Shown here: piece after piece, positions 2,107 through 10,698 of the stretch | How positions within the stretch are numbered: the first letter of the stretch is position 1 | How the letters are laid out: the number at the start of each line of letters is the position of its first letter | DNA from: an uncultured Bacteroidota bacterium | Lineage (GTDB): Bacteria > Bacteroidota > Bacteroidia > Bacteroidales > CG2-30-32-10 | Assembly (NCBI GenBank): GCA_903847905.1 | Contig: CAINEZ010000237.1 | Coordinates: 1 to 18,816, forward strand | Direction: 5' to 3' | DNA: 18,816 bases | Program-made: the position numbers and the translations under genes | Notes under the pieces: model-generated | What the model was told of the DNA's origin: nothing | Databases searched by the model: none | Seen by the model: only the letters and a program-made list of their open reading frames with translations

Positions 2107-2403
2107 ATGAATAAAACTGAAATTGATATAAAAAAATTAGAAGATGCTGCAGGCAGATTACGTGCAATTGCTCATCCTATGAGAATTGCTATAATTTCAA
2201 TGCTTGAAATTCATATTAAGTTAAATGTAACTGAAATCTACTTAAAGCTTAATATTGAGCAGGCAGCAGCTTCACATCATCTCAACATACTTAAAAATAA
2301 AGGGGTATTATCTTCTAAAAGGGAGGGGAAACAAACCTATTATTTCCTGAAAAATGATGCCATAGTAAATATAATCGACTGCATTAACAAGTGTAGTGGT
2401 TGA
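2107..2403 (+). CDS. ArsR/SmtB-family HTH transcriptional regulator lacking an alpha3 Cys site, with a C-terminal CxxxC
   Basis: 98 aa from ATG 2107; the ORF-track TTG at 2053 adds 18 hydrophobic residues over the promoter. The winged-HTH signature is AHPMRIAIISML...VTEI...LNIEQAAASHHLNILKNKGVLSSKREGKQTYY. The only cysteines are the C-terminal CINKC. Confidence 0.85.
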   Translation: MNKTEIDIKKLEDAAGRLRAIAHPMRIAIISMLEIHIKLNVTEIYLKLNIEQAAASHHLNILKNKGVLSSKREGKQTYYFLKNDAIVNIIDCINKCSG

Positions 2404-2433
2404 TTATTTAGTTTAGTTTGTTAGTTTGTATTT

Positions 2434-2484
2434 AAAAAATCTAACTTTTTGTCTTTTCATAGGGGATAATCAGTTAGATTTTTT
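2434..2484. terminator. Perfect 13-bp inverted repeat after the first ArsR gene (weak terminator or protein-binding dyad)
   Basis: AAAAAATCTAACT (2434-2446) is the exact reverse complement of AGTTAGATTTTTT (2472-2484). The loop is 25 nt and a T-run follows. The stem is AT-rich, so terminator strength is uncertain. Confidence 0.35.
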
Positions 2485-2530
2485 TTGTCCTTCAAAAAAA
2501 TTAACATTTTTTTTATTTTTTCATCAAAAA

Positions 2531-2551
2531 CATTTCGTAATTTTGCGAAAC
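2531..2551 (+). promoter_or_regulatory. Candidate -7 promoter box overlapping a TTTCG-N8-CGAAA dyad (copy 1 of a shared 12-mer)
   Basis: Sequence is catttcgTAATTTTGcgaaac. TAatTTTG (2538-2545) fits TAnnTTTG about 24 nt upstream of ATG 2569. The 12-mer catttcgtaatt recurs exactly at 3127-3138, and cgaaac recurs at 3150-3155. Confidence 0.35.
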
Positions 2552-2568
2552 ATAAAAACATATTTAAA

Positions 2569-2808
2569 ATGGAAATAAAAGTATTAGGCACAGGATGTGC
2601 AAATTGCAAAACACTTGAAAAAACAGTTTACAATGCTTTAGCCGAAATGAATTTAGATGCTAATGTTGAAAAGGTGGAAGACATTACTAAAATTATAGCT
2701 TATGGCGTAATGCGTACTCCGGCACTAGTAATTAACGAAAAAGTTATTTTTAGTGGAAGAGTCCCTTCAGTGAAAGAGCTAAGAGATATAATCGCCAATA
2801 ACCAGTGA
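2569..2808 (+). CDS. Small thioredoxin-fold protein of the 'redox-active disulfide protein 2' type (CxxC)
   Basis: 79 aa from ATG 2569. MEIKVLGTGCANCKTLE...GVMRTPALVINEKVIFSGRVPS has Cys10-x-x-Cys13 and no signal peptide. This is the architecture of the roughly 80-aa thioredoxin-like proteins usually found next to COG0701/ArsP-type permeases. Confidence 0.85.
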   Translation: MEIKVLGTGCANCKTLEKTVYNALAEMNLDANVEKVEDITKIIAYGVMRTPALVINEKVIFSGRVPSVKELRDIIANNQ

Positions 2809-2812
2809 TATT

Positions 2813-3112
2813 ATGGCTACAAAACCCAAGTTTACTGCTCAACACGAGCAAATTGCCCGTATTGCAAAAGCATTAAGTCATCCTGCACGTGTTTATATTT
2901 TAGAAAAACTGAATGGATTACAAACTTGTTGTACCAGTGGCGAAATGATAGGTGATATTCCTATTGCCCGTTCCACATTGTCACAGCATTTAAAGGAGTT
3001 AAAATATTCAGGATTGATACAGGGCGACATTGAACCACCTAAAATTAAATATTGTATTAATCGTAAAAACTGGAAAATTGCCAAAATGATTTTGAATGAT
3101 TTTATGAAATAA
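2813..3112 (+). CDS. arsR: ArsR-family metalloid-responsive repressor with a vicinal Cys pair in the alpha3 sensor position
   Basis: 99 aa. LSHPARVYILEKL...TCCTSGEM...IARSTLSQHLKELKYSGLI aligns with the ELCVCDL...ISRHLALLRESGLL region of classical ArsR. Cys39-Cys40 occupy the As(III)-binding position. Confidence 0.85.
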   Translation: MATKPKFTAQHEQIARIAKALSHPARVYILEKLNGLQTCCTSGEMIGDIPIARSTLSQHLKELKYSGLIQGDIEPPKIKYCINRKNWKIAKMILNDFMK

Positions 3113-8815: not shown

Positions 8816-8819
8816 TTCT

Positions 8820-9851
8820 ATGGGAAAAGATTTCATAACGGGTCAAATAAAAACAGTAGCAGGCAATGTAGCGCAGGTTTCCACAGTGTGGTCATCAAAT
8901 GATGTGTGGAGCACAATAAAAGTTCGTTGGTCTATAGGACGTATGGATTACAAAGTAAAACAAGGTTTATATGCTGTGGGTAATCCGGATGAAAATTCAA
9001 ATATTTTTGTTTCTGCAAATTTTAAATTAAGTTTCGATCATTTACGCCGCGCTTTGCACAAAATGAATGCATGGATACTCGTGCTTGATACAAAAGGTGT
9101 CAATGTATGGTGTGCTGCCGGAAAAGGAACTTTCGGGACAAAAGAATTAGTATATAGAATAAAAGCCCATGAACTTGAAAAAATAGTTTCGCACAGGAAA
9201 ATTATTGTTCCGCAATTAGGAGCGACAGGAGTTTCAGCGCACGAAGTAAAAAATAAAACAGGCTTTCATGTTATATACGGGCCTGTACGCGCTGATGATA
9301 TCAAAGCATTTGTAGATTCGGGTTTTAAAGCAACTCCCGAAATGCGAAAAGTAAAATTCCCGCTTAAAGAAAGAGCAAAATTAATTCCTGTTGAACTTAC
9401 TTATGGAAAATATTACCTGCTTTTTATTCCTGCATTATTTTTTATTCTTTCAGGATTAAATATTCACGGGTATTCCATTGACCTTGCATGGGAAAATGGC
9501 GGCAAATCGTTTATCAATTTATTTTCTGCATATTTTGCGGGATGCGCATTAACGCCAATATTGCTGCCCTGGATACCATTCAAAAGATTTTCATTAAAAG
9601 GACTTTTTTTAGGACTGGTGATTGGCTTTATTTTATTGTACTTTCATTTTTTGGGAAATAATATATTTGAAATTATTTCATGGTTTTTAATAACCGGAAG
9701 CATATCATCATTTCTTGCAATGAATTTCACGGGTTCTTCTACATTTACTTCACTGAGCGGTGTTCAGAAAGAAATGAAATTATCATTGCCTTTGCAAATT
9801 ATTGCAGCAAGCATTGGATTAGTTGGATGGATTTTTACAAGATTTATATAA
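8820..9851 (+). CDS. hgcA: HgcA, the corrinoid protein of the mercury-methylation pair
   Basis: 343 aa. The diagnostic cap-helix motif NVWCAAGK (aa 95-102, nt 9102-9125; Cys98 = nt 9111-9113) sits within ILVLDTKGVNVWCAAGKGTFGT. Further matches are VSANFKLSFDHLRRAL, IVPQLGATGVSAHEV and GPVRADDI. The C-terminal ~150 aa form about 5 TM helices, an architecture that separates HgcA from soluble CFeSP paralogs. Confidence 0.88.
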   Translation: MGKDFITGQIKTVAGNVAQVSTVWSSNDVWSTIKVRWSIGRMDYKVKQGLYAVGNPDENSNIFVSANFKLSFDHLRRALHKMNAWILVLDTKGVNVWCAAGKGTFGTKELVYRIKAHELEKIVSHRKIIVPQLGATGVSAHEVKNKTGFHVIYGPVRADDIKAFVDSGFKATPEMRKVKFPLKERAKLIPVELTYGKYYLLFIPALFFILSGLNIHGYSIDLAWENGGKSFINLFSAYFAGCALTPILLPWIPFKRFSLKGLFLGLVIGFILLYFHFLGNNIFEIISWFLITGSISSFLAMNFTGSSTFTSLSGVQKEMKLSLPLQIIAASIGLVGWIFTRFI

Positions 9852-9852
9852 T

Positions 9853-10152
9853 ATGAACAGATTTGTGTATTTAAAAAATGTTGTTACTCTTGAACTTGAC
9901 TGGCAGAAATGCAATGGTTGCAAGATGTGTACAATTGTTTGCCCGCATGAAGTGTTTGTTGTAAAAGACAAAAAAGCAATAATCCGGAACAGAGATTATT
10001 GTATGGAATGCGGCGCTTGCGAAAAAAATTGTCCGGAAGGAGCTATCAGCGTAAGATCGGGTGTTGGCTGTGCGGCAGGTATTATTAATGGTTTGCTGAA
10101 AGGGACAGAACCCAGTTGTGATTGTTCTTCTTCAAAAGATAAGTGTTGTTAA
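9853..10152 (+). CDS. hgcB: HgcB, the 2x[4Fe-4S] ferredoxin partner of HgcA
   Basis: 99 aa from ATG 9853, 1 nt after the hgcA stop. It has CNGCKMCTIVCP (C20-C30) and CMECGACEKNCP (C50-C60), the conserved GVGCA Cys73, and a C-terminal tail SCDCSSSKDKCC ending in the vicinal CC typical of HgcB. Confidence 0.85.
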   Translation: MNRFVYLKNVVTLELDWQKCNGCKMCTIVCPHEVFVVKDKKAIIRNRDYCMECGACEKNCPEGAISVRSGVGCAAGIINGLLKGTEPSCDCSSSKDKCC

Positions 10153-10171
10153 TTTAATCGAAAAATAATAA

Positions 10172-10240
10172 CCAATGCTCAACACTCAATGTCCAATTAT
10201 GAAGTTAAATATTATTGGAAGTTCTGCGGTTGAGTATTGG
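10172..10240 (+). promoter_or_regulatory. Nested inverted repeat in the hgcB-arsC spacer (RNA structure or protein-binding dyad)
   Basis: CCAATGCTCAAC (10172-10183) pairs with GTTGAGTATTGG (10229-10240): 11 of 12 Watson-Crick, the 12th a G-U wobble. An inner TCCAAT (10192-10197) / ATTGGA (10214-10219) stem lies within. No U-run follows immediately. Confidence 0.35.
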
Positions 10241-10260
10241 AAATTAGTTATTTTTAAATC

Positions 10261-10698
10261 ATGAAAATATTAATAATTTGCACAGGAAATACTTGTCGCA
10301 GCCAGATGGCAGAAGGGTTTCTAAAATCTTTTGATAAAGATATGGAAGTATATTCAGCTGGAACAAATGCTGAAAGCATAGTTAATCCTTATGCTGTAAA
10401 GGTAATGACTGAGAAAGCCATGCCTACCGGCAGGCAGGGAATTGACATTTCAAAACAAATTCCAAAAAATGTTGACCTGTTTTTGAAAGAAAATTTTGAT
10501 TATGTTATCACAGTTTGTGATGACGCCAAAGAAACATGCCCTGTTTTTACAGGAAATGTAAAACACAGGCTGCACATAAATTTTGAGGATCCCGCAACCG
10601 CAACAGGAAGTGATGAAGAAAAACTTGCTGTTTATAGGAAAGTGAGAGATCAGATCGAAAAGGAATTTAGAAATTTTGTATCAAAGCTGAAAAGTTGA
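10261..10698 (+). CDS. arsC: Arsenate reductase, thioredoxin-coupled LMW-PTP type
   Basis: 145 aa. It has the P-loop ICTGNTCRSQMAEG (CX5R) and the downstream Cys pair VCDDAKETCP, equivalent to Cys10/82/89 of the S. aureus and B. subtilis ArsC type. It carries an extra ~7 aa (KAMPTGR) relative to B. subtilis ArsC as I recall it. Confidence 0.9.
   Translation: MKILIICTGNTCRSQMAEGFLKSFDKDMEVYSAGTNAESIVNPYAVKVMTEKAMPTGRQGIDISKQIPKNVDLFLKENFDYVITVCDDAKETCPVFTGNVKHRLHINFEDPATATGSDEEKLAVYRKVRDQIEKEFRNFVSKLKS

Follow-up and report, generated by a model that had tools for sequence, protein, structure and literature searches.

hgcAB embedded in a long ars gene cluster of an uncultured Bacteroidales bacterium

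Bacteroidota are often abundant among environmental carriers of hgcA, and the native function and regulation of the corrinoid protein HgcA and its ferredoxin partner HgcB limit the prediction of methylmercury production. Here we describe a window of 18,816 nt from an uncultured Bacteroidales bacterium (all coordinates are window positions), in which hgcAB lies within a long cluster of arsenic-resistance (ars) genes. The closest described arrangements are those of McDaniel et al. 2020 (PMC7438021, Fig. 6), in which hgcAB is flanked by acr3/arsC with arsR and sometimes arsM nearby, and those of Peterson et al. 2025 (PMC11984097, Fig. 4c), who reported the same neighbourhoods and found arsR-preceded hgcA to be less expressed in a lake metatranscriptome. 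As in our window, hgcAB stands beside or between acr3 and arsC with an ArsR-type regulator upstream, and a connection between metal(loid) resistance and mercury methylation was proposed. Those reports concern adjacency in selected metagenome-assembled genomes, whereas the window has a rarer order, with acr3 upstream and arsC downstream of hgcAB; their searchable text contains no mention of an ArsEFG/ArsP extension, an operator-promoter motif or a pair of CcdA-like and Cys-rich proteins.

The arsenic link has been tested in Pseudodesulfovibrio mercurii ND132 (Gionfriddo et al., bioRxiv 2022; Appl Environ Microbiol 2023). An initial annotation of our window mentioned that an ArsR-like regulator has been reported to control hgcAB in that strain, and this is what the study describes: an ArsR-family repressor is encoded and co-transcribed with hgcAB, and both As(III) and As(V) affect expression. 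The same authors noted ArsR together with hgcAB and ars genes in Bacteroidetes, for example Paludibacter jiangxiensis NM7. ND132 differs from the window in having no other ars genes co-located with hgcAB, which here lies inside a probable 13-gene ars operon, and in its regulator, which has a four-Cys site in place of the C40/C81 pattern of the window regulator ArsRb.

Two further systems correspond to the ars part of the cluster. The ArsEFG organoarsenical pathway (Chen, Zhang and Rosen 2019, as cited in PMC9144182) is matched by window ArsE, ArsF and ArsG proteins that exceed their model cutoffs, accompanied by an ArsP_1 protein with a vicinal CSC pair. Unlike that system, the window has three ArsF proteins rather than one, an arsR after arsE and a fusion of the module to the hgcAB segment, and its substrates are putative. 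In Campylobacter jejuni, Acr3 and ArsP coexist in one operon, as they do in the window.

The hgcAB-ars layout is therefore common in Bacteroidota and published in outline, and the window is an unusually complete documented example of it. In the searchable literature we found neither counts over about 160 loci nor any account of the operator-promoter composite, of the two membrane partners of hgcAB (CcdA-like and anchor), of a linkage of ArsEFG/ArsP to hgcAB or of one slot that alternates between arsM and hgcAB. An arsenic hypothesis had also been put forward in the initial annotation; the link it pointed to exists, although it was already in print (McDaniel 2020; Gionfriddo 2022). Because the general link is published, the value of the present analysis lies in detail and numbers rather than in a new concept. 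We consider that the cluster is probably one long ArsR-repressed resistance operon for soft metalloids of the arsenic type, built of shuffling modules that include hgcAB. Together with about 130 relatives, the window suggests that hgcAB of Bacteroidota is a fixed part of an ArsR-type operon with an identifiable operator, not a free-standing pair.

Gene content of the cluster

The cluster spans 2107-10698 and comprises 15 co-directional genes, all on the + strand:

2107..2403, + strand: arsRa, ArsR/SmtB regulator with a C-terminal CxxxC (NF033788, 70.5 bits, cutoff 55; PF01022 match)
2569..2808, + strand: arsE, thioredoxin-like, CANC motif (TIGR00412, 114.8 bits, cutoff 62; PF13192 match)
2813..3112, + strand: arsRb, ArsR-family regulator with Cys39/Cys40/Cys81 (PF01022, 28.2 bits, cutoff 22)
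3163..3594, + strand: arsF paralogue 1, CMTC, signal/lipoprotein-like N-terminus (NF040494, 87.3 bits, cutoff 60)
3591..4160, + strand: arsF paralogue 2, CPSC, 4-nt overlap with arsF paralogue 1 (NF040494, 95.8 bits)
4183..4617, + strand: arsF paralogue 3, CHTC (NF040494, 94.2 bits)
4624..5331, + strand: arsG, permease of the CcdA/DsbD fold (NF040495, 316 bits, cutoff 200; PF13386 match)
5336..6373, + strand: arsP-type permease with TPFCSCS (PF03773, ArsP_1, 244 bits; CSC at residues 113-115)
6377..7486, + strand: acr3, arsenite efflux transporter (TIGR00832, 440 bits, cutoff 282.8)
7490..7720, + strand: 76-aa protein with nine Cys and three CxxC (no Pfam/NCBIfam match)
7746..8111, + strand: 121-aa Cys-rich single-pass anchor with N-terminal CxCxxxCC, one transmembrane helix and CC repeats (no family match)
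8111..8815, + strand: CcdA/DsbD_2-like membrane protein with CxC (C34, C36) and CC (C154, C155) (PF13386, 35.9 bits, cutoff 24.9)
8820..9851, + strand: hgcA, corrinoid protein with a C-terminal membrane domain (NF040863, 437.7 bits, cutoff 275, profile positions 1-324 of 325)
9853..10152, + strand: hgcB, 2[4Fe-4S] ferredoxin (NF040864, 125 bits, cutoff 99)
10261..10698, + strand: arsC, low-molecular-weight protein tyrosine phosphatase (LMW-PTP) type, Cys triad (PF01451, LMWPc, 73 bits, cutoff 23.2)

Recomputed junctions from arsE (2569) to hgcB (10152) measure 4, 50, -4, 22, 6, 4, 3, 3, 25, -1, 4 and 1 nt, so that none of the 12 junctions of this 13-gene string exceeds 50 nt; one is an overlap of the ATGA type and another an overlap of 1 nt. 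Larger gaps separate arsRa from arsE (165 nt) and hgcB from arsC (108 nt). The initial annotation had described this layout of 15 co-directional genes, 13 of them spaced by no more than 50 nt between 2569 and 10152 and hgcAB placed between acr3 and arsC; the recomputed junctions, gene coordinates and family matches agree with it. Some of its generic names can now be made specific: the 'trx-like' gene encodes ArsE, the CMTC, CPSC and CHTC genes encode three ArsF proteins and the first 'DsbD-like' gene encodes ArsG.

Nearly every product had also been said to carry a paired-Cys motif, and the enrichment is strong: we counted 22 C-x0-2-C motifs in the 15 operon proteins (2719 aa) versus none in 7 flanking proteins (2876 aa), with Cys contents of 2.5% and 0.94%, respectively. 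Outside the cluster lie housekeeping genes (for adenine deaminase, GldH, UvrC, NUDIX and patatin-like proteins, an OPT transporter and an M20 peptidase), and no sharp difference in GC content separates these flanks from the operon. Consistent with the earlier statement that arsM, arsA, arsD and mer genes are absent, Pfam/NCBIfam profile searches matched none of these families among the sizeable open reading frames of the window, and methyltransferase families, ArsM included, had no match to any window open reading frame. No mer family reached its cutoff in the window; the sole match was the N-terminus of ArsF paralogue 2 to MerP_Gpos (16.7 bits, cutoff 110).

The ArsEFG module is complete, with all three components adjacent, above their model cutoffs and joined by junctions of at most 50 nt, and ArsE, the three ArsF proteins and ArsG would together form an organoarsenical module. 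The permease that follows is assigned to the ArsP family with a predicted vicinal Cys pair in the membrane; no NCBIfam equivalog reached its cutoff for this protein. The true start of acr3 may be the ATG at 6419. ArsC scored 131.8 bits against TIGR02691, below the cutoff of 174.3. Its motifs, read directly, comprise a P-loop CTGNTCRS and VCDDAKETCP, giving a P-loop Cys and two distal Cys, and the protein is probably a thioredoxin-coupled arsenate reductase.

Judged by sequence, HgcA and HgcB are bona fide members of their families. The cap-helix motif of HgcA, reportedly described by Parks and colleagues in 2013 as N(V/I)WCA(A/G)GK with a Cys ligand, reads GVNVWCAAGKGTF (NVWCAAGK) in the translation, and the corrinoid domain is recognized by PF03599 (1.1e-13) and by homology to the corrinoid iron-sulphur protein of PDB 4djd (E = 8e-11). 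HgcB, whose gene begins 1 nt after hgcA, has two CX2CX2CX3C clusters, with the motifs CNGC/CKMC and CMEC/CGAC (CMECGAC), and a terminal CC.

Conserved synteny and the operator-promoter

We scanned one genome per species for HgcA and obtained at least 80 Bacteroidota loci, with HgcA 51-79% identical to that of the window; a metagenome search from the CcdA-like protein gave at least 80 further loci, or about 160 overall. Related loci are numbered L001 onwards; the genome loci were annotated by BLAST against the window proteins. A co-directional ars gene lay within 5 kb of hgcA in 35 of the 37 genome loci that had at least 5 kb on both flanks; 31 of the 37 had arsC or acr3 and 25 had both. Recurrence of the synteny in other Bacteroidota was the check proposed with the initial annotation, and the synteny recurs widely; the hgcAB-ars arrangement is thus neither unique to this genome nor a chance one. 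Carriers come from groundwater, peat, lakes, digesters and termite guts, and a small number of hgcA loci (L056, L069) lack ars genes in their vicinity.

The commonest order was arsR - arsC - (Cys-rich anchor) - CcdA-like - hgcA - hgcB - acr3, and a Paludibacter/Microbacter type reads arsR-arsE-arsF-arsG-arsP-arsC-hgcA-hgcB-(GNAT)-acr3. In total, 33 genome loci have arsC upstream and acr3 downstream of hgcAB. The order of the window, with acr3 upstream and arsC downstream, is a minority found at one genome locus (L001) and in about six distinct metagenome contigs (L085, L087, L089, L092, L093 and L095). Three of these (L085, L089 and L092) have the exact order of the window at 75-80% nucleotide identity and share its chromosomal flanks (ade ... 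gldH-uvrC), with uvrC downstream in all three and the adenine deaminase gene upstream in L089. Median gaps are short throughout: 1 nt between hgcA and hgcB (n=124), 6 nt between the CcdA-like gene and hgcA (n=93), -4 nt between the anchor and CcdA-like genes (n=42), 2 nt between arsC and hgcA (n=20) and 3 nt between hgcB and acr3 (n=60). In relatives, 4-nt overlaps link arsC to hgcA.

Ahead of arsE lies the following element:

2533..2550, + strand: operator-promoter composite TTTCG-TAATTTTG-CGAAA, a palindrome flanking a Bacteroidota -7 box

The composite ends 18 nt before the arsE start codon, and its core TTCG-N8-CGAA (2534-2549) lies 20 nt before it. At the centre of the palindrome, the box TAATTTTG (2538-2545) matches the Bacteroidota element TAnnTTTG. 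The window contains one copy of the palindrome TTCG-TAnnTTTG-CGAA, even when three mismatches are allowed. When the regions upstream of arsE in relatives were aligned, the operator block was conserved and its surroundings were not. The core TTCGTANNTTTGCGAA (14 specified bases) occurs in 19 related loci, once in each and in every case on the strand of the operon. Counting variant copies, about 30 loci carry the operator at a distance of 12-88 nt from the arsR or arsE that follows, except that in L072 the next gene is hgcA; the operons it heads include those of the Paludibacter/Microbacter type (L073-L078). A palindrome placed over a -7 box in this way has the form of a classical repressor operator overlapping its own promoter.

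The likely ligand of this site is encoded within the string. ArsRb is the regulator type that heads hgcAB operons of relatives, and Cys40 is kept in 82 of 90 homologues of the family and Cys81 in 88 of 90. From the single operator-promoter copy and the Cys40/Cys81-type ArsRb, we infer a single ArsR-gated promoter for the 13 genes. The co-transcription that the initial annotation had suggested is the most economical reading of the tight junctions, the single operator-promoter at 2533-2550 and the absence of any Bacteroidota -7 box from the gaps before hgcA; the hgcAB module has no such box ahead of it because there are no gaps there.

In our preferred reading, that of an ArsR-repressed operon of shuffling modules, a first module of arsE-arsR-arsF (three copies)-arsG-arsP would serve organoarsenical handling and efflux, and a second, acr3 with the 9-Cys small protein, arsenite efflux. 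The third would comprise the Cys-rich anchor, the CcdA-like CxC/CC membrane protein, hgcA and hgcB, and the fourth, arsC, would provide arsenate reduction. Transcription would start at the promoter with its -7 box at 2538-2545 inside the operator at 2533-2550, which the operon-encoded ArsR of the Cys40/Cys81 type would occupy until a thiophilic inducer, such as As(III), released it and turned on all 13 genes, hgcAB included. HgcAB would carry out the chemistry known for its family, in which a methyl group passes from a corrinoid to a soft metal bound by thiols (shown for Hg(II) only), and the handling of the thiophilic substrate or of the methylated product at the membrane would fall to the CcdA-like and anchor proteins. 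If this is true, arsenic or organoarsenical exposure, not mercury, gates the methylmercury-forming capacity of these Bacteroidota. Handles for experiments are a candidate binding site, two Cys-rich membrane partners, natural arsM/hgcAB operon variants and cultured relatives with the same operon type.

Several observations weigh against this reading. ArsRb scored 42 bits on NF033788, under the cutoff of 55, and we know of no Bacteroidota HgcAB that has been shown to methylate mercury. TAnnTTTG boxes in the window are in total no more numerous than expected by chance, and the box before arsE is meaningful only because it is conserved inside the palindrome; since boxes within coding sequence occur at chance frequency, internal promoters there are possible. 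A scan for sigma-70 promoters and terminators returned counts close to shuffle expectation, and was dropped in favour of TAnnTTTG as its consensus is unsuited to Bacteroidota. Moreover, arsC may be partly uncoupled from the upstream genes because of a stable hairpin in the hgcB-arsC spacer. Finally, the ND132 regulator also responded to S-adenosylhomocysteine (Gionfriddo et al.).

Membrane partners, arsM and rival explanations

None of the three genes between acr3 and hgcA has a named family, and only the CcdA-like one has a generic family. The CcdA-like protein is a near-constant partner of hgcAB in Bacteroidota. At 128 loci with a full-length gene, the gene that follows is hgcA in 102, arsM in 4, acr3 in 4, arsC in 1 and a gene of no assigned identity in 5, with the contig ending in the other 12, so that, of the 116 testable loci, 102 (88%) have it immediately ahead of hgcA. 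Exclusivity to hgcAB was considered and rejected: 13 of 65 metagenome loci do not have hgcA next, some having acr3, arsC or arsM instead, and the gene also occurs in hgcAB-less operons of the form arsR-arsC-X-acr3 (L139, L153, L163).

The four Cys of the CcdA-like protein and its residues P157 and P160 do not vary among 50 diverse members of its family, of which 28 match DsbD_TM and 26 match DsbD_2. Its predicted DsbD_2 fold and its retention of the catalytic Cys positions in transmembrane helices 1 and 4 recall CcdA/DsbD; in a marginal match (E = 0.058) to Thermus thermophilus CcdA (5vkv), C36 and C154 fall on its two catalytic Cys. Unlike those proteins, it has an extra Cys beside each catalytic Cys (CxC and CC) and no cytochrome c maturation context. 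It is 24% identical to ArsG. Its 278 detectable relatives carry the public name 'cytochrome c biogenesis protein CcdA', which is probably a misnomer because the neighbours at the 128 loci are arsR, arsC, hgcAB, arsM and acr3; neither a cytochrome c maturation context nor a periplasmic thioredoxin partner was found there. In the searchable literature we found no paper pairing hgcA with DsbD, CcdA or 'cytochrome c biogenesis'. An AlphaFold2 model built from the 50-sequence alignment was too poor for a fold search (mean predicted local distance difference test score, 57.8) and was not used.

In the anchor protein, C11, C13, C18, C84 and C85 are conserved in 39 homologues. The nine Cys of the 76-aa protein are all invariant in 4 aligned homologues. 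The gene for the latter follows acr3 in 12 loci, at a median gap of 5 nt, and tracks acr3 even when acr3 has moved 3' of hgcB (L002).

We screened related loci for arsM with a motif screen followed by NCBIfam NF008823 (cutoff 263). It was found in 14 loci (323-358 bits), 10 of which also have hgcAB in the same co-directional cluster, whereas the clusters of 120 of 130 hgcA-positive loci lack arsM. We rejected a strictly exclusive relation of arsM and hgcAB because of the 10 co-occurrences. In 8 of these 10, an ArsC-ArsM fusion stands directly upstream of the CcdA-like gene and hgcAB. In one sub-clade, in which CcdA-like proteins are 79-87% identical, the next gene is either arsM (L140, L155, L157, L159) or hgcAB (L131, L133), with 79-81% identity of the CcdA-like proteins between these loci, and the slot can thus hold either methylating system. 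The ArsC-ArsM fusions (L035, L046, L047, L058 at 7731-8960, L060, L065, L119 and L122) join an LMW-PTP arsenate reductase via a Cys-rich linker, SSCCGTTSCC, to an arsenite methyltransferase. L155 encodes an ArsE-ArsM fusion at 9248-10351, and the fusion proteins score 323-344 bits on NF008823.

These patterns bear on the proposal of the initial annotation that HgcAB acts on, or is induced by, arsenic. ArsR-type control of hgcAB is likely, because of the single conserved operator-promoter, the tight junctions and the recurrent synteny; the part of the proposal that casts HgcAB as a corrinoid alternative to ArsM is weakened. We regard it as improbable that HgcAB is a corrinoid-dependent arsenic or metalloid methyltransferase equivalent to ArsM, its product leaving through ArsP or the CcdA-like permease and mercury methylation being a side reaction. 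Such a role would fit the translational coupling of hgcAB to arsC or acr3 at dozens of loci, the lack of arsM from most hgcA-positive clusters, the alternation of arsM and hgcAB after closely similar CcdA-like genes and the higher As(V) sensitivity of an ND132 hgcAB deletion mutant. However, arsM and hgcAB share an operon in 10 loci, eight of them with ArsC-ArsM fusions, and therefore HgcAB is not simply a substitute; moreover, ND132, which has hgcAB and no arsM, makes thioarsenical-like products and no mono- or dimethylarsenicals, and its mutant has unchanged As(III) resistance. The four arsM-linked loci of the sub-clade, all drawn from metagenomes of a similar kind, may go back to one event, which is a reason to keep the estimate low. 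It had also been argued that ArsP without ArsM leaves HgcAB as the methylating enzyme, an argument that fails. To our knowledge, the C. jejuni arsP operon has no arsM. ArsP can serve without endogenous methylation: the C. jejuni protein, from an operon described with acr3, protects this non-methylating bacterium from exogenous MAs(III), that is, trivalent methylarsenic, and roxarsone(III) (PMC6205960), and the window arsP adjoins arsEFG. A related version, which we hold to be similarly doubtful, treats HgcAB and ArsM as interchangeable cassettes in one ArsR-controlled slot, with methylation of a soft metalloid as the native job of HgcAB and the CcdA-like protein delivering substrate or exporting MAs(III) or methylmercury; if true, the long search for a membrane partner of HgcAB would end with the CcdA-like protein.

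Mercury could instead be the dedicated substrate of the third module, which would then be a trafficking and methylation unit like MerP/MerT feeding MerA, the ars genes being only neighbours co-regulated under general thiol or soft-metal stress. The periplasmic CC of the anchor would capture Hg(II) and pass it through the CxC/CC of the CcdA-like protein across the membrane to the C-terminal CC of HgcB. Vicinal Cys pairs are a hallmark of the transmembrane helices of the transporters MerT, MerC and MerF, and such pairs are invariant here; the position of the CcdA-like gene directly before hgcA at 88% of testable loci and the terminal CC of HgcB agree with this route. The Mer transporters have no sequence homology to the window protein, however, and the only match to a mer family in the window is below its cutoff. 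The CcdA-like gene also occurs without hgcAB (L139, L153, L163) and beside arsM, which therefore indicates an arsenic context rather than mercury specifically, and published work finds that hgcAB is not induced by mercury; we judge a mercury-dedicated unit unlikely. Less probable still, to the point of being very unlikely, is that hgcAB merely landed in an often rearranged, often transferred ars island with no shared function. The variable module order (arsC first in 33 genome loci, reversed in L001) and the few hgcA loci without nearby ars genes are what such hitch-hiking would produce, but the association spans HgcA proteins 51-79% identical to that of the window, many species-level genomes and varied habitats. 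It includes 4-nt arsC-hgcA overlaps and operons headed by a shared operator, and neutral linkage is not expected to stay so tight.

Border elements and variant operons

Three further features lie at the borders of the 13-gene string or in the corresponding spacers of relatives:

2434..2487, + strand: hairpin and T-run 3' of arsRa (inverted repeat, 20-nt arms of 85% complementarity), likely to be an intrinsic terminator
10161..10255, + strand: long imperfect hairpin filling the hgcB-arsC spacer (-26.7 kcal/mol, z = -4.66, 0 of 200 shuffles as stable)
L001 5763-5926; L087 8043-8192; L089 8042-8143; L092 8048-8198: hgcB-arsC spacers of relatives

The stretch around the first hairpin (2404-2500) folds at -18.5 kcal/mol (z = -3.2). 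A -7-like box, TACATTTG, lies at 2077-2084 ahead of arsRa, whose conservation does not extend to most related loci and which is probably its own transcription unit. In relatives with the order of the window, the hgcB-arsC spacers also form hairpins, of -21 to -34 kcal/mol and unrelated in sequence. The window hairpin may be a transcript-end or stability element, an attenuator or a small palindromic repeat element. An Rfam scan of the window, cobalamin riboswitch included, matched nothing.

In L072, which has no ars genes nearby, tandem operator-like palindromes, TTCGTAATAATACGAA and TTCGTACATTTACGAA, lie at 2681-2718, 73 and 51 nt before hgcA, and the same regulator type may act there in trans. 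In L153 (2331-2441) and L163 (5536-5646), both hgcAB-less with the order arsR-X-CcdA-like-acr3, only the first 37 residues of ArsC are detectable, at 76% identity, with about 350 nt between them and the CcdA-like gene. A deletion may have left this remnant, or it may be part of a fusion with the anchor gene.

The three tandem arsF genes of the window (3163-4617) exceed the one that would complete ArsEFG, and several relatives have one or two. The middle paralogue (CPSC) has a long Ser/Thr/Lys-rich linker.

Related operons carry additional genes. A three-gene set lies inside the operons of L004, L011, L015, L028, L032, L037, L042, L045, L046, L048, L052, L001 and L090, and encodes an ATP-binding cassette (ABC) permease of the MacB/FtsX type, which is about 406 aa long and has a conserved GCC motif, together with its neighbours, an ABC ATPase of about 225 aa and a thioredoxin-like lipoprotein of about 248 aa with a Cys-rich tail, SSCCPGGSKSGCG. 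Between arsG and arsR-arsC recur DGC-domain proteins (PF08859, with CGCG tails), a fusion of DGC and glycine-cleavage-H domains, a small protein rich in Cys and a further ferredoxin resembling HgcB (35-43% identity); inserts of this kind were seen in L005 (about 3400-5800), L006 (about 7800-9600), L032, L038, L042, L045, L046, L058 and L062, and one of the ars operons of ND132 also contains a DGC-domain gene. A rhodanese-domain protein of about 143 aa with a C-terminal CPC is encoded in 14 loci (for example, L018 8141-8572 and L081 7214-7627), where its gene either separates arsC or arsP from the anchor gene or stands 3' of hgcB. In loci of the Paludibacter/Microbacter type (L073-L078), one or two GNAT acetyltransferase genes, which recall ArsN-type organoarsenical acetyltransferases, stand between hgcB and acr3 or after acr3.

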